A stretch of DNA of 64,000 nucleotides from Candidatus Latescibacterota bacterium (lineage in GTDB: Bacteria; Latescibacterota; MVCY01; DTYK01), in NCBI GenBank assembly GCA_012961925.1, contig DTYK01000230.1, forward strand, positions 797-64,796, written 5' to 3'. The notes below the pieces were generated by a model. That model did no database searches and was not told the origin of the DNA. It saw nothing but the letters and a program-made list of their open reading frames with translations. Positions 2,645 through 50,784 of the stretch are shown in pieces. Each line of letters opens with the position of its first letter. Position 1 is the stretch's first letter. The translations under genes were made by a program, and so were the position numbers.

Positions 2645-2917
2645 TCAGTGTCTGAGCCCTAATTGTTCAATAAGAGACCGGTATCTTTCAGGATCTTTAT
2701 AATGAAGATACTTGAGCAACCTCCTTCGTTGTCCAACCAGCTTTAACAAGCCCTGACGGGAATGGTAATCCTTCTTGTGAATTCTAAAATGTTCAGTAAG
2801 TATCTCGATGCGCTTCGATATTAGGGCGATCTGGACCTCGGGCGACCCTGTATCCTCCGCCCATCGCCCGAAATTGGCGATGATCTCTTTTTTTTGTTCT
2901 TTTGTCAGCGGCATCAC
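2645..2917 (-). CDS. rpsO: 30S ribosomal protein S15
   Basis: 90-aa protein, [16 protein letters not shown]...[25 protein letters not shown], canonical S15. Confidence 0.95.
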
Positions 2918-2985
2918 TGATTCTCCTTTCCTAACCGCAATGGACCTCCAGGTTTGATTTAGGTCATTTCGGATTTTGATATCGT

Positions 2986-3933
2986 TTAGGGTTTAGTATT
3001 CAATATTTCGGCAGCAGCTTTCACATCGGCCTCTATCTGTCTGGCCAGATCCCTTTCTTTCATGAATCTTATCTCGTCCCTTAACCTAGCAACTATCCGA
3101 ACATCGATTTGCAAACCATATAGATCGCCGTTGAACTCGAGCAGATGGACTTCGATCGATTGTGGCCCTTCTCCAAAACTGGGGTGTTTGCCTATGTTCA
3201 TCACACCTGCCCTACGTCCTTCCGGGAGGATTACCCACACGGCATAAACACCGTCACGGGGGATGAGTTTTCTTGAATGGTTCACTTTCAAATTTGCGGT
3301 CGGGAAGCCCAATCTTCTGCCGATACCTTTACCACCACCAACAAAGGCCGTCAGTGAATAGTTGCGGCCCAACAGTTCAGATGCCTTCTCGATTTCCCCC
3401 TGGGCTATAAGGTTTCTTATCCGTGTGCTGCTTACCGGTTGGCCCGCGATAAAGACGGGCGGAACAACAATTACTTCAAAGCCCACTCGTTTGCCGACGA
3501 GTTCTAAATCCTGTGGAACCCCCCTGCGTCCCTTACCGAAGGCATGGTTGTACCCGACAACAAGTTCCTTTACGCCAATCTTGTCAATCAATACTTTTTC
3601 AACGAACTCTTCTGGTTCGGACTTTGAGAATTCCAGGGTAAAGGGATGGACAACTGCGGCATGAATGCCATGAAGGGCAAATAACTTCAATTTCTCCTCT
3701 TTGGTCGTCAGAAGCGGTGGGGCTGTATCCGGGGCAATCACCTGCTGAGGATGCGGGTCAAAGGTGAGGACAACAGCAGTACCCCCCTTTGCTGTGGCTC
3801 TACTTGCAACCTCCTTCAGAACAGAAGAATGACCCATATGAACTCCATCGAAGGTACCTACGCTCACCACCGGGTAGAAACCAAGATCTCCTATTTTCTC
3901 AATATTTTCTATCGTCCTCATTGTAAAACACAC
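2986..3933 (-). CDS. ribF: bifunctional riboflavin kinase / FMN adenylyltransferase
   Basis: [10 protein letters not shown] nucleotidyltransferase motif at the N-terminus and a C-terminal riboflavin kinase domain. Conserved truB-ribF-rpsO context. Confidence 0.9.
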
Positions 3934-4832
3934 ACGGGTCGCATCATATTCTGCGCAAGGTCAAGCTTGGCGACGCCTAACAGGTGACCTTCGCTATTCC
4001 TCACCCTAACTGTCGTCGCTCCATCAAAGGTAGTGGATAGCTTCAAAGCACCACCGTGTTTGAATCTGTCAGCCTCATCCGGATTGAGCTTCACATATGG
4101 AAATCTCTTCAGAGCATCATCAATAGACATGATGTTTGGAGCAAGATCACCTGCCTTTGCGAGAACCGTAATGTCCTCGACGCTTAGGGCTCTATCGATT
4201 GTGAACTCCCCTGACCTAACCCGACGTAGACCCGATAGGTGGCCCCCACACCCCAATTTCCCACCTATATCTGCTGCTAAGGTCCTTATATAGGTGCCCC
4301 TTGAGCAGACAACCCTCAGCACCAGTGACGGAGGCTGCCAGTTAACGACTTCTATCTCGTAAATATTGACCCTGCGGGGCGAAGGATGAACAGCTCTACC
4401 CTTTCTGGCCAACTGGTAAAGCCTTTGTCCTCCAATTTTTACCGCTGAGTAAACAGGCGGTATCTGTTCGATCTCGCCTTCAAAGCCTTTACATATTGCC
4501 TTTATTGAATCAAGACTGGTCCAGGGCACCTCAGTTATTTTCTCAACGCGGCCTTCGGCATCCAATGTATCTGTGGAGATACCAAGCCGAATCTCTGCAA
4601 TGTACTCTTTCTGGTTATCATCAAGGAAACGGAGGATCCTGGTGGCCTTCCCTATTAAGATGACAAGCACCCCTGTAGCAGCAGGGTCCAAGGTACCAGT
4701 ATGACCTATCTTTCTGACCCCCAATATGCTACGCAGCTTCGCCACCACATCATGGGAGGTCCAACCGAGTTCTTTATTCACAATCAGGACCCCATCCATA
4801 TTTGATATATCGCTTCCGAAATAAGATACCAT
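3918..4832 (-). CDS. truB: tRNA pseudouridine(55) synthase
   Basis: GHTGTLDPAATGVL catalytic motif; PUA-like C-terminus. Confidence 0.9.
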   Translation of the reverse strand: MVSYFGSDISNMDGVLIVNKELGWTSHDVVAKLRSILGVRKIGHTGTLDPAATGVLVILIGKATRILRFLDDNQKEYIAEIRLGISTDTLDAEGRVEKITEVPWTSLDSIKAICKGFEGEIEQIPPVYSAVKIGGQRLYQLARKGRAVHPSPRRVNIYEIEVVNWQPPSLVLRVVCSRGTYIRTLAADIGGKLGCGGHLSGLRRVRSGEFTIDRALSVEDITVLAKAGDLAPNIMSIDDALKRFPYVKLNPDEADRFKHGGALKLSTTFDGATTVRVRNSEGHLLGVAKLDLAQNMMRPVCVLQ

Positions 4833-4856
4833 TTACTATGGTTAATTTTGAACTAT

Positions 4857-5234
4857 TTATGCGTTGTCCTCTAATTCAGGATTTGCGATCGGGGCTTGGG
4901 CAAGTTGGTCGAGAATGGCATTGATTCGGGATCCGTGTTCTATTGAATCATCGTGGTAGAAGACGATCTCCGGTATACGTTTCAGGCGAATCCTGAGCCC
5001 AAGTTGTCCGCGGATGAACTTTGAAGCCCAATTGAGACCATTGATCGTCTCCTCCTTCTCCCTTAAGCTTCCGAAAACACTCACAAAGACTTTTGCACGT
5101 TTGAGATCGTTGGAGACGTCCACCCGTGTGATCGTGACAAAACCTATCCTTGGATCCCCTATCTTCCCCTTGATAATACTGGAAAGCTCATCGCGGATGA
5201 GCCCATTTATTCTTTCAATTCGTATGTGGTTCAT
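4857..5234 (-). CDS. rbfA: ribosome-binding factor A
   Basis: 125-aa protein with RbfA-type sequence (RINGLIRDELSSII..VTITRVDVSNDLKRAKVFVS). Confidence 0.9.
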   Translation of the reverse strand: MNHIRIERINGLIRDELSSIIKGKIGDPRIGFVTITRVDVSNDLKRAKVFVSVFGSLREKEETINGLNWASKFIRGQLGLRIRLKRIPEIVFYHDDSIEHGSRINAILDQLAQAPIANPELEDNA

Positions 5235-5259
5235 AGTGGTTTTAAGATTATATAACTTC

Positions 5260-5565
5260 CTACTTCATCTCCAGAGTGTAGTCAAGGAGCTGTACCCGTC
5301 GGTCGTTTTCAATAAGTTTTATCACGTTAGAAATGACTTGATTAGCATGCTTCGTCCCGTTAGAAACGACGGCCACTCCAAGGACCGCCTTTTGCCATAA
5401 ATCGTTATCTTCCACTTCAGCGACGGAGACATTAAATTTGTTGCTGATCTGGGCTTTGAGGCTGTTCAGAACGTACCTTTTCTCTTTTAAAGACCTGCTA
5501 TCCGAGATAAGCACCTCTATCCTGCATACCCCAATGATCAATCTCCCCCCCTTGCAGACAGACAA
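5260..5565 (-). CDS. DUF503 family protein (YlxP-like)
   Basis: 101-aa protein between infB and rbfA, the same position as B. subtilis ylxP. Confidence 0.7.
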   Translation of the reverse strand: MSVCKGGRLIIGVCRIEVLISDSRSLKEKRYVLNSLKAQISNKFNVSVAEVEDNDLWQKAVLGVAVVSNGTKHANQVISNVIKLIENDRRVQLLDYTLEMK

Positions 5566-5662
5566 ACTAATTACTCAACCTCTTGCAGAATATGTGACTG
5601 AACAATGAACTCTTGTAGCGATCGATAGACCCCTCTGTTTTGTGAAACATTCACAGGTCCTT

Positions 5663-7882
5663 CTATTTCAGTTCTCTGACGGTCTCGGTGACCTCGAAGA
5701 CCTCAAGGAGATCGTTTTCCCTGATATCGTCAGATCCTTCAATCCCCACTCCGCATTCGTATCCCGTACTCACCTCTTTGACATCATCCTTAAACCTTTT
5801 AAGAGAGGTTATAGAACCCTCAAAGATTACAGCACCATCTCTCAGGACTCGTACTGATAAGCCTCTTCGTATCACTCCCGACTGTACATAACAGCCTGCG
5901 ATCGTTCCAACCTTAGGAATCCTGAAGACCTGACGCACCGAAGCTGTGCCGATCACCTTCTCCTGGATCTCAGGCGCAAGCAGACCGGAGAGAGCGGCCT
6001 TCACATCATCGATTGCGTCATAGATGATCTGATAGAACCTTATGTCAACCTGTTCCTTAGTAGCAAGATCCCGAGCTCTGGCCTCTGCTCTGACGTTAAA
6101 ACCGATAATTATGGCATTGGACGCCGCTGCTAATAGAACATCTGATTCGGCGACAGCACCGACCCCCCGATGGATCACCCTGACAGTAACTTCTTCATTG
6201 CCAAGCTGCATCAAGGAGTCACTAAGGGCCTCTACAGATCCATCCACATCAGCTTTTACGATGAGAGAAAGGTCTTTGATCCGTCCTTCCTTTATCTGTT
6301 GAGAAATATCGCCCAGCGTCGGTCTCTTAACCCTTCGATGATCCTGTTCTCTTTTCAGAAGCTGCCTCTTCTGACTGATGAGTTTTGCCTCCCGCTCCGA
6401 AGAAAGTACATAGAAGGAGTCGCCTGCCTGTGGTATGCCTTCAATACCGAGGATCTGCACAGGAGATGAGGGCCCAGCTTCTTTCAACTGGTAGCCGCGT
6501 TCGTTGAACAGAGCGCGGACTCGCCCACTTGACAGTCCAACCACAAAGGGATCTCCAATCCCCAAGGTTCCGTCCTGTACAAGTACGGTTGCGATGCAAC
6601 CACGTCCTCTGTCGAGCCTGGCCTCTATGATTGTGCCCTTTGCCTTTCTGTGGGGGTTTGCCTTTAGTTCCAGCATCTCTGCTTCCAGGAGCAACATGTC
6701 CAAGAGTTTATCGATACCTTTTCCAGTTTTAGCTGAAACCTCTGCTGCTAAGGTCTTTCCCCCCCATCCTTCGACCAGAAGACCATGATCAGCGAGTTGT
6801 TGTTTTACAGCATCAGGGTTGGCCTTGGGAAGGTCGACCTTATTTATTGCCACAACAATCGGAACACCCGCTGCCCTGGCATGATCTATTGCCTCGACCG
6901 TCTGAGGCATCACACCCGAGTCCGCAGCCACGACGAGAACCACTATGTCTGTCACCTGCGCCCCCCTTGCCCGCATCGCCGTAAATGCTTCATGCCCTGG
7001 TGTATCGAGAAAGGTAACCTTGCCACCTTCAAGTTCCACCTCATAGGCACCGATGTGTTGGGTGATGCCACCCACCTCACCAGCTATGATATTGCTTTTT
7101 CTGATGTAATCTAACAGAGAGGTCTTTCCATGGTCAACATGGCCCATAATGGTCACTACTGGGGGTCTGGGCTGAAGCATGTCTTCATCCACTTCCTCTT
7201 CCTCTTTCTCCAAAAGATCTTCAGCATATTCTCCCAGAGGTTCGACCTCAAATCCAAACTCGTCGGCCACCATAGCAATTGTATCCATATCCAGCCTCTG
7301 GTTGATGGTGACCACAAGACCCATCTCCAGACATTTTGATATGACCTCGGATGTCTTAACACCCATCAGCGCTGCCAGTTCTGCAATTGAGGTGAATTCG
7401 CTGACCCTGAGGAGATTCCTCTCCTCTTCGACCTCTTCCCCCTGTCGTTGGATCTTCGGGCGCCTCTTTTTCCCTCTCACACCACTCTCTATCTGAGCAA
7501 GGGTCTTTCTGATGTTCTCCTCCACAATCTTCTGGTCAACCTCTCGCCTTTTCAAGCGAGATTTCCTTCTGTTCCTGAATCTTGACGGTCCAACAACCTG
7601 TTCCTTCTTCTTTCGTCTTTTCTTCTTCTGATCGGATGGAGCGGAGACTTTGGCAACAACGGTTTTCGTTCGTTCTTCCGTTCGCTTCTTCTTGCGCTTT
7701 ATTTCACGCCTGAACTCCTCCTTTTCCTCCTCAAACTTCTTGTGTATCTGTTCAGCCATCTTTTCATCAACGATACTCATGTAGCCTTTCACATCAAAAC
7801 CCATATCCTTAAGCATCGCTATCAGAGCATCGCTGGATATGTGATACTCCTTTGCTACTTGATGTACCCTCTTTTTCTCCAA
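5663..7882 (-). CDS. infB: translation initiation factor IF-2
   Basis: 739-aa protein with a Lys/Arg/Glu-rich N-terminal region and a GTPase domain ([24 protein letters not shown]). Confidence 0.95.
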
Positions 7883-12300: not shown

Positions 12301-13242
12301 CTATACCTGCCTTTTTCTCCTCATGAGCTCTACAAGCCTTCTGTTGAACTCCCTGGCGGGATGGATGCCGCTCACCTTCAAGAGGTGGTTGAGGGCGACT
12401 ATCTCCGCAATGACTGTGATGTTCTTGCCGGGGTATATCGGAATGGCGACCACAGGGATCTCTATATCCAGGATAGATGTGGTCTTCTCTTCAAGTCCGA
12501 TCCTCTCGTAGTCAAGCGATTCATCCCAATCGACTAGCCGAACCTCTACTTCTATCCTCTTCTGCAACCGTACAGCTCTGATACCGAAGGTCCTTCGTAC
12601 ATCTATAATACCGACTCCGCGTATCTCTATATGGTGACGTAGGATATCGCTACCGGTGCCCATCAGTATGCCCTGAGCCCTTCTGGTGATTACAACCACA
12701 TCATCTGCAACCAGACGATGGCCCCGCTCCACAAGGTCGAGTGCTATCTCGCTCTTCCCTATCGAACTCCTCCCGGTGAAGAGAAGTCCCACGCCATAGA
12801 CATCCACCAGTGATGCATGCATGGTGATCTGTGGGGCAAAGACCTCATCGAGGTAGAGGTTAAAAAGATGAATAAACTTCGTAGTGGCGAATTTTGTCCT
12901 GAGCAAGGGTATCGCCCTTTTGTTTGAGAGCTCTGACAGGAGGGGAAAGGGCTCATTGTTGCCAGTAATCACTATACATGGGAGGTCAAACTGATATATG
13001 GTCTCCAATGCCTGGCGCCTCGCATCCTCACTAAGCCCCCTCAGGTAGATCATCTCAGTGTTGCCAAGCACCTGAACTCGATCGAAGGTGTAAAGTTCCA
13101 CAAACCCGGCAAGGGCCAGGCCAGGACGATGGATCTCCCCACTTGTCAGCGTTCTGTCCAGACCCTCTTGGCCAGCAATGAGTTTCAGGGCCAGTCTCCT
13201 ACGATTTTGTTTAAGCAGTTCACGAATGGTTATCTCCTTCAT
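12301..13242 (-). CDS. hprK: HPr kinase/phosphorylase
   Basis: 313-aa protein with Walker A GRSSIGKSE and the conserved HprK C-terminal domain. Confidence 0.9.
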   Translation of the reverse strand: MKEITIRELLKQNRRRLALKLIAGQEGLDRTLTSGEIHRPGLALAGFVELYTFDRVQVLGNTEMIYLRGLSEDARRQALETIYQFDLPCIVITGNNEPFPLLSELSNKRAIPLLRTKFATTKFIHLFNLYLDEVFAPQITMHASLVDVYGVGLLFTGRSSIGKSEIALDLVERGHRLVADDVVVITRRAQGILMGTGSDILRHHIEIRGVGIIDVRRTFGIRAVRLQKRIEVEVRLVDWDESLDYERIGLEEKTTSILDIEIPVVAIPIYPGKNITVIAEIVALNHLLKVSGIHPAREFNRRLVELMRRKRQV

Positions 13243-13954: not shown

Positions 13955-14689
13955 TCAAAGTTTACTGACTACCAGGTCGATCTCGGCCCCTTTTCTTACC
14001 CGCCCTCCCGCAGGAATAGACTGTCTTAGAACGGTGTCTGGAAGATATTCAAGGCTTGATTGATAGGTTACCCTGCCGAGCCTTAAACCCATCCTCTCCA
14101 GGAGATCAGAGGCTTCCTGGAGACTTTTTCCGACCAGGTCGGGCATTAGAGCCAGCTCCGGTGGACCAGTACTAACCACCAGATCAATAAGCACATCTTT
14201 ACCTGCAAGTTCTCCTGGCTCGGGGATCTGCGAAATAACCACACCTTTTGGAAATTCATAAGAAGGCTGGCCAGTTATTGTTCCCGTCTTAAATCCTATC
14301 TGATCAAGAATCAGCATTGCCTGCCGCTGGGAGACACCACGGACATCCGGAACCTCATATAAACGGGCACCTCTACTGATAGCCACAAAGACACGACGTC
14401 CCCTTTTCACCCAGGAGTAAGGGGGCGGCGACTGAGAGATGACCGCTCCCTCTGGCAGCTCCTCATTCTCCTCCTGACGCTCCACCACCAAAAGGAGGCC
14501 CCGCTTTTGAAGGATATCCCTAGCCTCTTCAAGCCCTTTCTCTGTGACATCGGGCACTTCAACATCCTGGCCATGTTTAACCACCCATGGCATCACAACC
14601 CGATCCACGATGAAGAATCCCACGACCAGAGGAAGAAATGCCGCACAAATGAAGGGCAGGAAGCGCTTTCGAAATTTAGAAGATGTCAC
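13955..14689 (-). CDS. membrane-anchored PASTA-domain protein (three PASTA repeats, no kinase domain)
   Basis: An N-terminal transmembrane helix followed by three repeats of the ..VPDVxG.....A...L...G.......P.G.V..Q.P..G......I.L.VS.G pattern. It sits between rsmB and rpe, where Firmicutes carry prpC-prkC-rsgA. Confidence 0.7.
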   Translation of the reverse strand: MTSSKFRKRFLPFICAAFLPLVVGFFIVDRVVMPWVVKHGQDVEVPDVTEKGLEEARDILQKRGLLLVVERQEENEELPEGAVISQSPPPYSWVKRGRRVFVAISRGARLYEVPDVRGVSQRQAMLILDQIGFKTGTITGQPSYEFPKGVVISQIPEPGELAGKDVLIDLVVSTGPPELALMPDLVGKSLQEASDLLERMGLRLGRVTYQSSLEYLPDTVLRQSIPAGGRVRKGAEIDLVVSKL

Positions 14690-29434: not shown

Positions 29435-32302
29435 TCAGGTTTCCAGATCAAACCACTCCAGAATACCCTTAACCATCTCATCCGCTGATCTAAAGACAGC
29501 ATGTTTTCCTGGAAGTGAGTTCATAAAGACTGCCCCGTAATCCCTTGTGAGTACCCGGTTGTCCAGTATGACGACCACGCCCCTGTCGGTCCGATTCCTT
29601 ATGAGTCTCCCAAAACCCTGGCGGAGTTTTATCACTGCCTCGGGCAATGAATAATTATAGAATGGGTTCACCCCCTGTTGCTCCAGTCTCTCTATCCGTG
29701 CGGCAACAATGGGTTCGGTGGGAACCGCAAAGGGGAGCTTAACGATCACAAGCACCTCCAGGGCCTCGCCCGGCAGGTCCACACCCTCCCAGAAGCTCTC
29801 CGTGCCAAAAAGGACAGAGCCCGGCTCTTCAATAAACTGGGTCATGATGTTGGAACGGGAACCGTCAAGACCCTGACCAAGAAGGGCAATCCCTTCGGTA
29901 TCTGCAAAATCCTTCAGACTACTATAAGATTCGTTTAGCATTGCATAGGACGTGAAGAGGACAAGTGCCCCTTTCCTGATCTTCCCCGTCAGATTCTGGA
30001 TGATCTCATCGATCGAACTCTGGAACAGAGGAGACCCTGGCGGCGGAACCCAGGATGGGATACAGAGCAGACTCTGTTTTTTATAGTCGAAAGGCGACCC
30101 CAGAGCCAGGAGTTTCACCCTGCCATTACACCCGGGATCAATACCGAGTCTGCTGGTAAAATAGCTGAAATCACCGCCGACAGTGATGGTCGCCGAAGTG
30201 AAGACTATAGTTTTTAATCTGCTATACAGCCGGGACGACAAAAGAGGTGAAACATCGATGGGAGCGGCGCAAAGCCTGGTATCAAAGCTCTCCTCTCTTG
30301 CAGGCAGCTCGACCCAGTAAACATAATCGTCATCTTCGGCAGCAAGGAGAAAGGCAAAGTCATCGCAGATCTCCTGACAATCCATATATCTTCCCTCAAG
30401 ACTGGTTGTCAATTCCTCCTGCATCCTGAAAGTACCGTCTGGCAGACCCTTCAGCCACATACAGAACTCATACACCTCTGACCCCAATCGCTCCAGCAGA
30501 TGAAGGTAGTTCTCTAATCCACCATGGATAAGCTTAAAGACCCCTTCTTCCTTCTTATACCTTATCTTCTGGGAGCGAGGTGTGCTGTTATCGCCGAAGT
30601 AGTCCCTCACCTCCTTTGTCAGGTTCCGGAAAAGTTCTTGACCCTCCTGCCAGGCCGCCTTTGAGATCTCAATGAGCATCCTTATTCGTGAGAGGGAACT
30701 CTCAAGCATAAGCTGATCGACTTCCGAGTCCGTTAGAAGCTGCCTGATGGTGACCAACATTCCGGTTTCAGCGAGCTCCTTAGAGTAAAGACTGCGGACT
30801 AACGTCCTGATCCTCCATACATCCATCTGGCGTCCCAGGTACTGCGTTGCCACTTTTTCAACGTTATGCGCCTCATCGAGGATGAGATGTTCATAGTCGG
30901 CCAGCACAGCATTTTCGGATGCAAGGTCTGAGAATAGCAGCGAGTGGTTGACCACGACGATATGGGACTTGAGGGCCGCTTTCCTCACCTTTGTGACGAA
31001 ACATCTGTTATGATATTTACACCTCTGTCCAAGACAATAGTTACTTTCGGCGCAGATCTTGCCCCATAAGGTTGCATTTCTGAATCCCCTAAGCCCGTTG
31101 TTTTCGGCTATATCACCCGTGGTGGTCTCCTCCAGCCAGGTTAAGACAGCTACGGCTGCTCTCCTTTCGTCGTCTGAGAACGCGGTTTCAACCTGGCTCA
31201 GGGCCGTGTACCACTTGTTAAGGCAGATGTAGTTCGATCGTCCTTTGAGAAGCGTTGACCCAAAAGGTATAGCCAGAATCCTGGCCAGCTCTGGCAAGTC
31301 TTTGTAGAACAATTGTTCCTGGAGGTTTTTGGTATTGGTCGAGACGACCACCCGGCTTCTATTATTAACCGACCAGTAGATGGCTGGAACAAGGTAGGCG
31401 AGCGACTTCCCGGTGCCTGTTCCGGCTTCTACCACAAGCCATTGTGAGTTGTTGAACGTCTCGGCAACAACCCGCGCCATGACAAGTTGTTGATCTCTCT
31501 TCTCATAACCCTTAAGGCATCTGCTGAGGACCCCCTGCTCGGCAAAGATGGAGCAGATCAGGTCCACATCTATCCTCTCAGGTAGCTTCCCTTCAGAGCT
31601 CAGGTCAGAGGATGAAACGGCCAGTCCCTCCACATTAAACAGCTCCCTCAGGTACGAGACGTCGGTCTCTCGGGCCCTGATCTTGGTCCGTGGAACCCTC
31701 CTGATGAGAGAACCGGTGACCTCACGTAGGATGTACTCCAGACTGGAACCTGTCCCCTGCGCTATCCTGAGCATCTCCTGAACAGTAGCCAGATCCTTAT
31801 CCATGAGGGTATCGATCAACCGCAGGAACGCCAGGGCCAGTCCACGGGCATCGTTCAGAGCCCGATGGCTTTGGTCTTCGCCTATCCTAAGAAATCGGAT
31901 AAGCGTTCGAAGTCTATGATTAATCAACCTCGGCAAGACACAGCGGGCTAACTCCAGACAATCCCAGACCGGACGCACATTATGGAAGCCGGGATGTCTC
32001 CTGAGAAAGGCAAGGTCAAAGGGAGCGTTATAGGAGACAAGGGGATATTCGCCTATAAATTCCCTGAAGCTTGATAATGCCTGAGAGAGCTCAGGAGAAC
32101 CCCTTACATCATCGTCTGATATCCCTGTCAGTCGGGTGATAGAGGGAGGGATTGAGCCAGAAGGTCTGACCAGATGGTCAAACTCCCCGGCGACCTCTCC
32201 TTCCTCTACCTTGACCGCACCAATCTCGATTATCTCAGCAACCTCCGGGTCTAATCCGGTTGTCTCCAGATCAAATGCTACAAATGTATTCAAAACCGAC
32301 AT
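29435..32302 (-). CDS. dinG: DinG-family ATP-dependent helicase with N-terminal DnaQ-like 3'-5' exonuclease domain
   Basis: 955-aa protein. The N-terminus FVAFDLETTGLDPEVAEIIEIGAV is a DEDD exonuclease; helicase motifs (DEAHN, GTGKS), an Fe-S Cys cluster (CLGQRCKYHNRC) and a C-terminal helicase domain follow. Confidence 0.85.
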   Translation of the reverse strand: MSVLNTFVAFDLETTGLDPEVAEIIEIGAVKVEEGEVAGEFDHLVRPSGSIPPSITRLTGISDDDVRGSPELSQALSSFREFIGEYPLVSYNAPFDLAFLRRHPGFHNVRPVWDCLELARCVLPRLINHRLRTLIRFLRIGEDQSHRALNDARGLALAFLRLIDTLMDKDLATVQEMLRIAQGTGSSLEYILREVTGSLIRRVPRTKIRARETDVSYLRELFNVEGLAVSSSDLSSEGKLPERIDVDLICSIFAEQGVLSRCLKGYEKRDQQLVMARVVAETFNNSQWLVVEAGTGTGKSLAYLVPAIYWSVNNRSRVVVSTNTKNLQEQLFYKDLPELARILAIPFGSTLLKGRSNYICLNKWYTALSQVETAFSDDERRAAVAVLTWLEETTTGDIAENNGLRGFRNATLWGKICAESNYCLGQRCKYHNRCFVTKVRKAALKSHIVVVNHSLLFSDLASENAVLADYEHLILDEAHNVEKVATQYLGRQMDVWRIRTLVRSLYSKELAETGMLVTIRQLLTDSEVDQLMLESSLSRIRMLIEISKAAWQEGQELFRNLTKEVRDYFGDNSTPRSQKIRYKKEEGVFKLIHGGLENYLHLLERLGSEVYEFCMWLKGLPDGTFRMQEELTTSLEGRYMDCQEICDDFAFLLAAEDDDYVYWVELPAREESFDTRLCAAPIDVSPLLSSRLYSRLKTIVFTSATITVGGDFSYFTSRLGIDPGCNGRVKLLALGSPFDYKKQSLLCIPSWVPPPGSPLFQSSIDEIIQNLTGKIRKGALVLFTSYAMLNESYSSLKDFADTEGIALLGQGLDGSRSNIMTQFIEEPGSVLFGTESFWEGVDLPGEALEVLVIVKLPFAVPTEPIVAARIERLEQQGVNPFYNYSLPEAVIKLRQGFGRLIRNRTDRGVVVILDNRVLTRDYGAVFMNSLPGKHAVFRSADEMVKGILEWFDLET

Positions 32303-46444: not shown

Positions 46445-47044
46445 TTAATTTCCAGTGGCATCTTCGGCCTGCGGCTTCTGTTTCTGCTGCCTGGCGCGGC
46501 GCTGTTTCTTTGGCCTTGTTTCAGCCACGGTATCACCCTGCGTCTCCGGAACAGGCGGCTCAGGCTCCTCGGCAGCTTCATCTCTTCCTTCTGCGTCCGA
46601 CGGCGCAGGTTGGACTGGCTCCGTCGGCGTCTGCTCCTCTCGTTCAGTTGGCGTTTCTGCTGGAGGAACATGCTCGGCTGGTTCCGGGGAGGTCGTTTCA
46701 GCCTCACCGACTTCTGGCTCCGTTGGTTCGGGCGCGGCAAGCTCTGGCTCAACGCTCACAGGTTCAGCCGTTGGAGTGGCTCTGCGTATCTGATCCCATT
46801 TGCTCAGGACACCATATCGCTTGAGCAGACTTCTGGCCGTCTCAGTAGGTATTGCGCCTTTGCTTAACCAGAAGATCACCCGCTCTTCGTCGATCCTCAC
46901 CTCTGCAGGATCCGGGATGGGGTTGTAGAAGCCTAACTCCTCGATGTATACACCATCTCTCGGGGCCTTTGAATCCGCAACAACTATCCTGTAGAACGGT
47001 CTCTTTTTGGCCCCCATTCGCTTCAACCTGATCTTTACTGGCAA
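46445..47044 (-). CDS. rpsP: 30S ribosomal protein S16 with ~115-aa Pro/Glu/Thr/Ala-rich C-terminal extension
   Basis: Canonical S16 over aa 1-80 ([31 protein letters not shown]..), then a low-complexity acidic tail (..[27 protein letters not shown]..) ending in a basic [12 protein letters not shown] patch. Confidence 0.85.
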
Positions 47045-48522: not shown

Positions 48523-49053
48523 TTAATACTCTATTCCTCTTCTGGCCTCCAGCCCCCTCTCAAAGGGATGTTTCACATCCAGCATTTCGGTGACAAGATC
48601 CGCCTTCTGGATCACCAGCGGCCGGGCATTTCTACCCGTAAGGACCAGGTCGATCGTCCCAGGACGGAGGTCGATCAGTTCAATTGCATCCTTCTCCTCC
48701 ACAACACCCAAGTCTACAGCGGTATTTATCTCATCGAGTATCAGAAGATCACATTCACGGTTCTCCATGATCTCCCTGGCCCTGGATACGCCGGCAGAGG
48801 CAAGCCTTAAATCTTCCGGACCGGGGTTCCCTTTCCTGATGAACTCCCCTGTACCAAAACATTCGAACTTAAGGTTCTGAAGCCCGGCGGCGGAACGAAG
48901 TTCTCCAGAATTGCGTCCGTTCTTCAAGAATTGAAGAACTATCACCCGGAGGCCCCACCCGCAAGCTCTCAGGGCCTGTCCCAGAGCTGCCGTTGTCTTG
49001 CCCTTTCCAGAGCCTGTGTAGACCTGCACAATTCCAGGGTCCTTAGAACCCAT
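48523..49053 (-). CDS. cobO: ATP:cob(I)alamin adenosyltransferase (CobO/BtuR type)
   Basis: Sequence ..GIVQVYTGSGKGKTTAALGQALRA... Start taken at the ATG at 49053, which overlaps the upstream stop as ATGA; the M1 at 49128 would overlap the upstream gene by 76 nt. Confidence 0.75.
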   Translation of the reverse strand: MGSKDPGIVQVYTGSGKGKTTAALGQALRACGWGLRVIVLQFLKNGRNSGELRSAAGLQNLKFECFGTGEFIRKGNPGPEDLRLASAGVSRAREIMENRECDLLILDEINTAVDLGVVEEKDAIELIDLRPGTIDLVLTGRNARPLVIQKADLVTEMLDVKHPFERGLEARRGIEY

Positions 49054-50198
49054 CAAAACCCCTCCTGGGCTAACCTTATGATGGTCGGCAGTATCCTCTC
49101 CAGCTCCTTTTTTATCCTTTGATAGCATCTCCGGTAAGCCTCCAATGGCTTTCCGGCTGGATCGGAGATCGGAATCGTAGAGCCTCGGCCGGCATCGAAC
49201 TCCTTGAGGGTGAAAAGCCGGTCAGGCGAAACCCCCATTTGCCCAACGACGGCCTTCTGTTCAGCAGAAAAGGTGAGGACCAGATCGGCTTCCCTCAGGA
49301 GTTCTTCATTAATTGCGCGGGACCGGTGGGCTGAGATGTCCACCCCATCCTCTCCAGCGGCCGTCACAGCTTCAGGAGCAGGGGGATTCCCATAGGAGGC
49401 GGCTGTGCCTGCCGATGTCACCCGAACCCTTCCGAGGATATCTGCAGGAAGCATCTCTTCAAGGATACCCTTGGCCATAGGACTACGACAGGTATTGCCC
49501 GTACAGACGAACAGTATATTAAAGGTCTCCTTCTGGTCCCTGGTTTCTCCTGGATCTACGTTTAGCAAACCAACCGCCCTTTGGATCTCTTCAACCCCTA
49601 TTCTCCCAGGTCTTATTACCTTAACATACCGGCCGGACACATCCACTACTGTTGATGGCGTCAGATCCTGAAAACAGCCGCCATCTATGACCAAAGAGAC
49701 TTGACCGCCAAAATTCTCCACCACCTCCTGAGCAGAACAGGCAGGTGGTCTTCCTGATATATTGGCGCTGGAAGAGGTCAACGGCTGTCCCAGTATATCG
49801 ACAAGACCGTTTGCAATTGGGCTGCTCGACACCCTGAGGGCAATCGTGTAGCCGTCACCTAACAGATGTTTCGGCAGATCTCGCCTTGCCTTGACCACGA
49901 TCGTCAAAGGCCCTGGCCAGAAGCTTTTCATCAAGGAACGTGCTGTATCGGGCAGCGTCTCCACCAGATGCTTTAACATTCTCTCTCCGGAAATCAGAAG
50001 GCCGATGGGCTTGGTCGGATCCCGTCTCTTCAGTTGATAAATTCTATGCCAAGCCTCCGCATTAAAGGGATTTGCACCCAGGCCGTACACCGTCTCCGTG
50101 GGATAACCCACAACTTCCCCCTGATGGATCAGCCGGGCAGCACGTCTCAGAACCATCTCATCGGGGTTATTCGGGTCTACCGCCACTATCTCTCTCAT
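49053..50198 (-). CDS. fusion protein: L-threonylcarbamoyladenylate synthase (TsaC/YrdC/YwlC domain) + low-molecular-weight protein phosphatase (YwlE-like)
   Basis: N-terminal YrdC fold (..VVGYPTETVYGLGANPFN..SSANISG..). C-terminal LMW-PTP with the CX5R P-loop (FVCTGNTCRSPMA) and a DP motif. Start at the ATG at 50198, which has an AGAAGG Shine-Dalgarno. Confidence 0.8.
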   Translation of the reverse strand: MREIVAVDPNNPDEMVLRRAARLIHQGEVVGYPTETVYGLGANPFNAEAWHRIYQLKRRDPTKPIGLLISGERMLKHLVETLPDTARSLMKSFWPGPLTIVVKARRDLPKHLLGDGYTIALRVSSSPIANGLVDILGQPLTSSSANISGRPPACSAQEVVENFGGQVSLVIDGGCFQDLTPSTVVDVSGRYVKVIRPGRIGVEEIQRAVGLLNVDPGETRDQKETFNILFVCTGNTCRSPMAKGILEEMLPADILGRVRVTSAGTAASYGNPPAPEAVTAAGEDGVDISAHRSRAINEELLREADLVLTFSAEQKAVVGQMGVSPDRLFTLKEFDAGRGSTIPISDPAGKPLEAYRRCYQRIKKELERILPTIIRLAQEGF

Positions 50199-50253
50199 GG
50201 GGACCTTCTTATCTCTTCGCCTGTCCATTTCCAGGCATCTGACTTCGACATCT

Positions 50254-50712
50254 CTATTTCTCTGCCAGCTCTTTCCGGTACTCCTCGAGCCTCTCCCTGA
50301 GGGTCTCGTCGGAAAGGGCAAGTATCTCTGCGGCCAGGATCGCTGCATTCTTCGCGTTGTTAATCCCCACAGTGGCCACCGGAACTCCTGTGGGCATCTG
50401 AACCATCGAACAGAGAGAGTCAAGCCCTGCCAATGGGCCGGCCGATATCGGGAGCCCTATCACCGGTAGGGTTGTATAGGAGGCAATCACACCTGGCAAG
50501 GCCGCGGAAAGACCTGCCGCAGCGATGATCAGCTTCAACCCCCTTGATCCGGCGCCTCTGGCATATTCCTTTGTCCCCTCAGGGTTACGGTGTGCAGAAC
50601 TGACGACAAGTTCGTAATCGATCCCAAACCTGTCCAGTAGCGTAGACGCTTCCTTCACAACCTCAAGGTCAGAACGGCTACCAACCACTATACCGATAAG
50701 CCTCTGTTTCAT
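50254..50712 (-). CDS. purE: N5-carboxyaminoimidazole ribonucleotide mutase
   Basis: Sequence MKQRLIGIVVGSRSDLEVVKEA..SAHRNP..; start at the internal ATG at 50712. Confidence 0.9.
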   Translation of the reverse strand: MKQRLIGIVVGSRSDLEVVKEASTLLDRFGIDYELVVSSAHRNPEGTKEYARGAGSRGLKLIIAAAGLSAALPGVIASYTTLPVIGLPISAGPLAGLDSLCSMVQMPTGVPVATVGINNAKNAAILAAEILALSDETLRERLEEYRKELAEK

Positions 50713-50784
50713 CACCCTTTCCCGGTGTTTAACTTCCCATCTGGTAATTTCATAATTTATTTCTATCCAGCCACCATATGACAC

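Follow-up and report, generated by a model that had tools for sequence, protein, structure and literature searches.

Work on protein arginine phosphorylation has been confined almost entirely to Firmicutes, and the roles of phosphatases of the YwlE type beyond that group are unstudied; the prevalence of the modification outside Firmicutes is itself described as unclear (PMC9604228). In Bacillus subtilis, Arg282 of TsaD is a phosphorylation site; TsaD-dependent expression falls when ywlE is lost, an effect that the R282K substitution suppresses (PMC7546277). YwlE stabilises B. subtilis TsaD against phospho-arginine-dependent degradation by ClpCP (PMC7546277). Among bacteria other than Firmicutes, Chlamydia keeps McsAB and ClpC (PMC11708050). 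Here we describe a gene from a Candidatus Latescibacterota bacterium that joins, in a single polypeptide, a TsaC-type threonylcarbamoyl-AMP (TC-AMP) synthase domain and a low-molecular-weight (LMW) phosphatase domain of the YwlE class. The gene lies in a stretch of 64,000 nucleotides (assembly GCA_012961925.1, contig DTYK01000230.1, positions 797 to 64,796), hereafter the window, and all coordinates without a locus name refer to it.

The fusion coding sequence (CDS) is complete and occupies positions 49053..50198 of the minus strand as one unbroken open reading frame (ORF) of 381 codons followed by a TGA stop, with no internal stop or change of frame. It encodes, in order, a YrdC/TsaC catalytic domain (amino acids (aa) 23-198; 49605..50132), an interdomain linker (aa 211-225; 49524..49568) and an LMW phosphatase domain (aa 228-368; 49095..49517), all on the minus strand. 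The original prediction, made from the letters of the sequence, had proposed a fusion of TsaC with a YwlE-like phosphatase at this position, and both Pfam domains that it named, Sua5_yciO_yrdC and LMWPc, are matched within the one ORF. A contig from a JGI metagenome (L001) shows 6 mismatches to the window over 15,836 bases and carries an identical fusion CDS. Five proteins from separate assemblies (JGI, NCBI HID95896.1, ENA and Logan) make up the cluster built at 90% identity. The threonyl-tRNA synthetase encoded in the window is 100% identical to a protein of a Latescibacteria metagenome-assembled genome, which identifies the source as an uncultured member of Latescibacterota. Because the same CDS, with its junction intact and free of stops or frameshifts, is present in five independent assemblies, the fusion is not a frameshift or assembly artefact, and it is confirmed as a genuine protein of bifunctional architecture. 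The GC content and the GC content at third codon positions (GC3) are alike in the N-terminal half, the C-terminal half and the neighbouring genes. A recent horizontal insertion of the LMWPc segment was considered and rejected, as the two halves and their neighbours give no compositional signal.

The N-terminal domain matches PF01300 at aa 23-198 (E-value 5.4e-53, 179.6 bits) and scores 187 bits with the NCBIfam TsaC equivalog model TIGR00057, for which the cut-off is 123. With NF007919, the NCBIfam model for "type 1 TsaC", it scores 125 bits, under the cut-off of 175. Its Foldseek matches are 6f89 and 9d3h, and also 1k7j at a template modelling score (TMt) of 0.91. The KRSN tetrad is present as K57-x-R59 (50022..50030, minus strand) and S144-x-N146 (49761..49769, minus strand), and all four residues are invariant in fusion alignments of 22 and of 50 sequences, the latter consisting of short-form fusions (see below). 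The YrdC profile, the fold and the tetrad thus agree with the TsaC/Sua5 family (COG0009, PF01300, TIGR00057) and with the YrdC/Sua5 fold predicted at the outset. The tetrad separates true TsaC from the paralogue YciO (PMC4615747); a YciO identity was rejected, since the tetrad is intact. A Pfam search found no match to the SUA5 domain (PF03481) in the fusion, and the N-terminal domain is therefore of the single-domain TsaC type and not of the Sua5/TsaC2 subtype. It would be expected to form TC-AMP from threonine, CO2/bicarbonate and ATP, the opening step in making the universal tRNA modification t6A37.

The C-terminal domain matches LMWPc (PF01451) at aa 228-368 with an E-value of 1e-30 (107.2 bits). 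It combines the fold of LMW phosphatases with a C-X5-R-(S/T) P-loop near the domain N-terminus and a D346-P347 D-loop. The P-loop reads C232-T-G-N-T236-C-R238-S239 (CTGNTCRS; 49482..49505, minus strand; codons TGT ACG GGC AAT ACC TGT CGT AGT). The D-loop, D346-P-A-G inside ISDPAG, contains the putative general acid Asp with no aromatic pair after DP (49152..49163, minus strand; codons GAT CCA GCC GGA). Both motifs had been read correctly from the sequence. The domain aligns with B. subtilis YwlE over its full length at about 35% identity, and a 13-residue stretch that includes the P-loop and its Thr, FVCTGNTCRSPMA, is the same in both proteins. Structures of the YwlE type score between 1e-21 and 1e-26 against the domain (YwlE itself 1e-21; PDB 4egs 9.9e-26), compared with 4e-12 for classical phosphotyrosine LMW protein tyrosine phosphatases (LMW-PTPs) such as MPtpA and 8e-12 for ArsC, so that the label "YwlE-like" has held up. 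In Foldseek searches the domain reaches TMt 0.85-0.90 to YwlE and 0.80-0.90 to many LMW-PTPs. Thr236 occupies position 5 of the P-loop. Thr at this position gives YwlE and Drosophila DARP their preference for phospho-arginine, and an Ile mutant turns to phosphotyrosine (PMC7772506); this Thr-versus-Ile criterion for phospho-arginine phosphatases is attributed to Fuhrmann 2013, as cited in PMC7772506. Of 144 fusions, 141 have Thr or Ser at position 5, and across the same 144 the D-loop is DP[IMVFLAY]G, with DPYY in none. The C-terminal domain is accordingly best described as a YwlE-class phosphatase with a predicted preference for phospho-arginine. Cys232, Arg238, Ser239, Asp346 and Pro347 are invariant across the 50 aligned short-form fusions, as is the KRSN tetrad, which suggests that selection maintains both active sites.

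We modelled the fusion twice with AlphaFold2, using alignments of 22 and 50 sequences. The mean predicted local distance difference test score (pLDDT) was 88.8 and 93.0, and the predicted template modelling score (pTM) was 0.58 and 0.63, respectively. The core of the LMWPc domain has a pLDDT of about 96-98 over most of its length. The linker, delimited by pLDDT and by alignment with standalone TsaC proteins of sister genomes, scores 56-57 over aa 211-220 in both models and below 50 at 217-222 in the model built from 50 sequences. The low pTM and the low-confidence linker give no support for a fixed domain interface; in these models the two domains look flexibly tethered and not packed on each other.

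We consider it fairly probable that the protein is a bifunctional combination of TsaC and a YwlE-class phosphatase, working as independent, tethered enzymes. A flexible linker of some 15-25 residues would join the TsaC domain to an LMW phosphatase that retains all putative catalytic residues. In the latter, Arg238 is predicted to hold the phosphoryl group for attack by Cys232, with Asp346 as the proton donor to the leaving group and Thr236 favouring phospho-arginine in the pocket. Most probably each domain acts on its own, and the benefit of the fusion would most likely be that the phosphatase is co-expressed with, and kept near, the t6A and translation machinery. One possible role is the clearing of degradation-marking phospho-arginine from partners such as TsaD. 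Both enzyme activities, the phospho-arginine substrate and any action on t6A proteins are inferred.

The fusion is not confined to this genome. In a search of 5.8 billion proteins, 118 of the 120 best matches contain both Pfam domains, and they fall into two forms: a short one of about 350-390 aa (YrdC and LMWPc) and a long one of about 475-630 aa (YrdC, SUA5 and LMWPc). We also scanned GTDB species representatives, re-calling ORFs and running the domain hidden Markov models, and kept 80 loci. The two domains share one ORF at 27 of these, from Omnitrophota, Planctomycetota, Verrucomicrobiota, Aerophobetes, Gemmatimonadota and Bacillota. At about 20 loci, mostly from Clostridia, sua5 is followed by a separate, adjoining LMWPc gene. 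The original prediction had called ywlC and ywlE of B. subtilis neighbours; in those Bacilli that we sampled, an LMWPc gene is found 0.9-2.9 kb downstream of sua5 and not directly beside it. The flanks of the archaeal loci sampled contained no LMWPc gene. Overall, the survey of its spread finds the fusion in at least seven phyla, including the cultured Stieleria magnilauensis (Planctomycetota). Neighbour-joining trees give about 15 switches between fused and unfused states for YrdC and about 10 for LMWPc, compared with 49 and 21 after label shuffling, and separate the short and long forms cleanly; the trees are coarse, and the sample leans towards high-scoring matches. The fusion is therefore an ordinary member of a large, database-visible and functionally unstudied architecture, and most likely one outcome of a pairing of tsaC/sua5 with a ywlE-like gene that is widely conserved and has undergone repeated fusion and splitting.

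At the Latescibacterota locus itself the presence of the phosphatase can be compared directly with its absence. The closest relatives of the N-terminal domain are standalone TsaC proteins of 217-218 aa from other Latescibacterota metagenome-assembled genomes (MCK4417053.1 and MCK4590139.1; P0054 and P0062 in our set), with 53% identity over aa 1-210. In these sister genomes a standalone TsaC of 217 or 218 aa is encoded in the same purE-tsaC-cobO order as in the window (L086, 5144-7181; L087, 1566-3237), the tsaC stop overlaps the cobO start, and CobO is 65% identical. The sister proteins end 8-10 residues past the helix at aa 202-210, whereas the window chain runs on into the linker and the phosphatase. 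As the order is the same with a standalone TsaC in the sisters, the phosphatase module has been gained or lost at a syntenic site. The direction can be read both ways. Each of the two domains shares about 43% identity with the same fusions (the P0002 group), an argument for a fusion that was inherited and then lost in the sister lineage. Most of the nearest relatives of the C-terminal domain (40-51% identity), however, are standalone and about 160 aa long, which points in the opposite direction; in an exhaustive search of 1.84 billion representatives, these standalone relatives were found to share its C-terminal E(L/I)ERILP helix. The purE-tsaC-cobO order is specific to Latescibacterota and occurs without the phosphatase. 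The linkage to purE and cobO was considered as part of a fusion "system" and rejected, since the nearest fusions have other neighbours.

We searched all ORFs of the window and of 90 loci for a protein arginine kinase with B. subtilis McsB (a query 100% identical to PDB 8wtb). The single match is on contig L016, from the Planctomycetota metagenome-assembled genome B140_G9, where one strand carries the fusion, rpiB, a coaD-like gene, a queD-like gene, an mcsA-like gene with a UVR motif, and mcsB (2734-7271). McsB proteins with the McsB_C domain share more than 80% identity over more than 100 Planctomycetota/Sedimentisphaerales clusters, and related Planctomycetota contigs (L088-L090) have mcsB in a conserved block, coaD-queD-mcsA-mcsB, and dnaK follows 1-1.5 kb downstream. 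Judged by these matches, lineages outside Bacillota that bear the fusion do have a protein arginine kinase. We infer a functional link of the fusion to t6A; the case gains strength from the fusion's recurrence, from the B. subtilis TsaD data and from the co-occurrence of the fusion with mcsA and mcsB on one contig. A bolder proposal, which we regard as plausible but rather unlikely, is that the repeated pairing reflects a direct, ancient coupling of phospho-arginine protein marking and the t6A machinery, extending beyond Firmicutes into phyla of the Fibrobacteres-Chlorobi-Bacteroidetes (FCB) and Planctomycetes-Verrucomicrobia-Chlamydiae (PVC) groups. The occurrence in at least seven phyla, the 10-15 or so switches, the dead copies retained by sua5 (described below) and the module at a conserved Latescibacterota site could be signs of such a coupling. 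If it were true, the tethered phosphatase would dock at or near the TsaC-TsaBDE machinery and shield it from phospho-arginine-directed degradation by ClpCP, and the capacity for an essential tRNA modification would be tied to the stress and proteostasis state of the cell.

Several observations weigh against a bifunctional enzyme with a phospho-arginine role. The Thr rule rests on few known enzymes. The sister lineage lives with a standalone TsaC, and the tether is for this reason dispensable. The closeness of the fusion to mcsAB on L016 is not kept in the related genomes L088-L090, and we therefore do not claim it as a conserved cluster. No gene for McsB, McsA, ClpC or TsaB/D/E is found within the 64-kb window; a phospho-arginine system in Latescibacterota, searched for within that window, is unproven. 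Gene neighbours vary among the nearest fusions. Finally, a literature search for the fusion architecture, which included reviews of the TsaC/Sua5 family and of t6A, found no description of it.

The simplest competing explanation is an accident of adjacency: two neighbours in an old housekeeping operon (of the prfA-prmC-tsaC-ywlE-rpiB type), with unrelated jobs, became joined, and nothing about t6A can be read from the fusion. The separate, adjoining sua5 and LMWPc genes that are common in Clostridia speak for it, and in Mycoplasma genitalium TsaC is fused to HemK, another operon neighbour. The lack of a confident AlphaFold2 interface, the sister Latescibacterota without the phosphatase module and the mostly standalone nearest relatives of the C-terminal domain fit it as well. 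However, the module here sits in a different array, purE-tsaC-cobO, and not in the Firmicute operon; the pairing spans at least seven phyla and two architectures with some 10-15 switches; dead LMWPc copies remain beside or fused to sua5 in Lachnospiraceae; and the B. subtilis genetics ties YwlE to TsaD. Mere adjacency thus seems to us a possible but unlikely account.

The dead copies come from gut and rumen Clostridia (Lachnospiraceae, Eubacterium, Roseburia), where an LMWPc domain beside sua5 has lost Cys and/or Arg from the P-loop and, in many cases, Asp from the D-loop. Examples of the replaced P-loops are FICMDNTSGSIMA, FVTDSDTSLGPLA and FAAESGTCRAPMA. Degenerate LMWPc genes directly follow sua5 at L030 (2287-2832), L045 (7057-7521), L055 (7024-7839), L057 (7051-7503), L059 (7087-7578), L060 (6927-7547), L068 (7016-7507) and L069 (7181-7666), and one degenerate LMWPc domain is fused to sua5 at L074 (4044-5582). 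They are likely pseudophosphatases that are still kept beside, or fused to, Sua5, and they hint at a non-catalytic, Sua5-linked role of the fold; for the window protein, which has an intact active site, they carry no direct information. These pseudophosphatases speak for a second alternative, in which the LMWPc domain is no protein phosphatase but serves TsaC directly, as a structural or regulatory stand-in for SUA5 that binds pyrophosphate or phosphate or gates the active site, or else acts on a small phosphorylated molecule. The LMWPc domain does occupy the position held by SUA5 in Sua5/TsaC2. Yet the long-form fusions have both SUA5 and LMWPc, the catalytic Cys, Arg and Asp are invariant in the short forms, and the P-loop stretch is the same as that of the protein phosphatase YwlE. 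With no confident packing of the domains at pTM 0.58-0.63, and a standalone TsaC in the sister lineage that lacks any such partner in cis, we find direct service to TsaC improbable.

A third alternative assigns the C-terminal domain to the classical phosphotyrosine LMW-PTPs, for example as the partner of a BY-kinase, like Wzb, and not to the arginine phosphatases. The fold and the CX5R chemistry are the same, YwlE itself was originally described as a phosphotyrosine phosphatase, and Ile stands at position 5 in 27 of the 146 nearest C-domain representatives. Against this, the fusion has Thr236 in place of the Ile usual in phosphotyrosine enzymes, lacks the aromatic pair after DP, and matches those enzymes with E-values that are poorer than for YwlE by about 10 orders of magnitude. 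A specific assignment to the Wzb/Etp type was tried and rejected (50.7 bits for the NCBIfam Wzb model against a cut-off of 243, and 48.3 against 247; D-loop DPAG and not DPYY). A phosphotyrosine phosphatase is on these grounds quite improbable. A thioredoxin-coupled ArsC of the pI258 type was likewise rejected: the only Cys residues of the domain are C232, C237 and C354, the Cys82/Cys89 redox pair of ArsC is absent, and the scores of 53-56 bits compare with cut-offs of 174-215. The last alternative, that two genes were joined by a sequencing or assembly error or that the gene is a pseudogene, has nothing in its favour except that the source is a metagenome-assembled genome, and is practically dismissed by the identical CDS in a second contig with 6 differences at other positions, the five cluster members from separate assemblies, homologues that align over the full length and through the junction, and GC and GC3 values of both halves that match the adjoining genes.

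Public records annotate three starts for the fusion, giving 381, 391 or 431 aa. The ATG at 50198 (381 aa) fits best: it has the better Shine-Dalgarno sequence, AGAAGG (50204..50209, minus strand; 5 nt 5' of the ATG), and agrees best with the N-termini of homologues, while the alternative ATG at 50228 is preceded by a weak GGA only. An in-frame TTG also occurs where the linker begins, at Leu211 (49566-49568, minus strand), and has a weak motif resembling AAGG upstream of it; internal initiation at this codon may, in principle, give a separately translated phosphatase half. Upstream of the fusion, across a 55-nt gap to the ATG, lies purE (aminoimidazole ribonucleotide carboxylase; 50254..50784, minus strand; PF00731, E-value 2.4e-60). 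Downstream lies a gene for a translationally coupled, cobO-like corrinoid adenosyltransferase of 176 aa (48523..49053, minus strand; PF02572, CobA_CobO_BtuR, E-value 3.8e-57). The fusion stop and the cobO start share 1 nt in TGATG (49051..49055, minus strand), and a Shine-Dalgarno sequence for cobO, AGGAGG (49061..49066, minus strand), is found within the last fusion codons, 8 nt 5' of the cobO ATG. The coupling of the array to cobO that had been predicted therefore stands, but the overlap is not the ATGA that was named. Coupling of tsaC and cobO is conserved in Latescibacterota, and other cobalamin genes are absent nearby (L086, L087). With the cobO-like protein, neither NCBIfam model for cob(I)yrinic acid a,c-diamide adenosyltransferase reaches its cut-off (155.6 against 167.75 and 169.2 against 185), which makes the exact function of this protein tentative. 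Among RNA elements near the fusion, Rfam gives one distant tRNA and nothing else, and promoter and terminator scans around the gene gave scores at or below chance.

Nearly all genes in positions 1-58703 of the window are on the minus strand and have housekeeping functions (pnp, rpsO, ribF, truB, infB, nusA, rny, pheST, rplT, infC, thrS, his genes, trmD, rimM, ffh, purDE and era); the plus strand carries only glnA, nadE and a few short ORFs. Some of the encoded proteins have unusual architectures. The rpsP gene (46445-47044, minus strand) encodes a ribosomal protein S16 that, at 199 aa, is over double the normal size and bears a C-terminal extension (about 110 residues) in which Pro, Glu, Ala and Thr are abundant. 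A 244-aa protein with three PASTA repeats and no kinase or transpeptidase domain is encoded between rsmB and rpe (13955-14689, minus strand), and hprK (12301-13242) adjoins this region. A 955-aa DinG-like helicase (DEAD, Helicase_C_2; 29435-32302, minus strand) has an N-terminal exonuclease domain of the RNase_T type. Outside the window, the second-best match to the C-terminal domain in the library of 1.84 billion representatives is a protein of 1679 aa (P0258) with six LMWPc-like stretches and four motifs of the CX5R type, mostly with Ser for Cys at position 6 (CAGNACRS, CSFNTSRS, CTHNTSRS and CAANHSRS); the protein seems to consist of LMW-phosphatase-like domains repeated in tandem.

The fusion is a useful lead and not a discovery, being one of many in public databases; it is less surprising than originally supposed, because the architecture is common and database-visible. 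Its GenBank record, HID95896.1, gives as product name just threonylcarbamoyl-AMP synthase [Candidatus Latescibacteria bacterium]. Because proteins of this kind are named in this way only, the phosphatase half is invisible in product names. What the recurrent fusion to TsaC offers, in the manner of a Rosetta stone, is a concrete and testable candidate partner pathway for YwlE-type phosphatases, namely t6A synthesis, in agreement with the one genetic report that has TsaD targeted by McsB/YwlE in B. subtilis. The value added by the window is a clean contrast between presence and absence of the module at the same locus in sister Latescibacterota.

Compared with known systems, the closest counterpart is the B. 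subtilis pair of YwlC (Sua5/TsaC2) and YwlE, in which the same two activities are genetically linked in one operon. The B. subtilis proteins are separate; here they correspond to one polypeptide whose TsaC part has no SUA5 domain. The host also differs, being a Gram-negative-type bacterium of the FCB group with McsB absent from the 64-kb window. The best solved relatives of the N-terminal domain are Sua5/TsaC2 proteins (Thermotoga maritima 9d3h, Pyrococcus abyssi 6f89 and Sulfolobus tokodaii 2eqa; E-values 5e-44 to 6e-38, about 33% identity). They have the KRSN tetrad in common with the fusion, which carries an LMW phosphatase after the catalytic domain and no SUA5. For the C-terminal domain, the best solved match is the LMW-PTP of Thermoanaerobacter tengcongensis (PDB 4egs, deposited as "RpiB"; 38% identity, TMt 0.89), a standalone protein, whereas the domain described here is tethered to TsaC. 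YrdC domains are often joined to operon or pathway partners, as in M. genitalium MG259 (TsaC/HemK), TsaN (TsaD-TsaC-SUA5-TcdA; 8ide), HypF and TobZ; the partners in those proteins are pathway or translation enzymes, and here the partner is a phosphatase. The same architecture and the same invariant residues are found in the TsaC-LMWPc family of the databases (Stieleria magnilauensis NZ_CP036432.1, Omnitrophota, Fidelibacterota, Clostridia), whose members are all annotated, like the fusion here, as plain threonylcarbamoyl-AMP synthase, share at most 43% identity with it and lie in other gene neighbourhoods.

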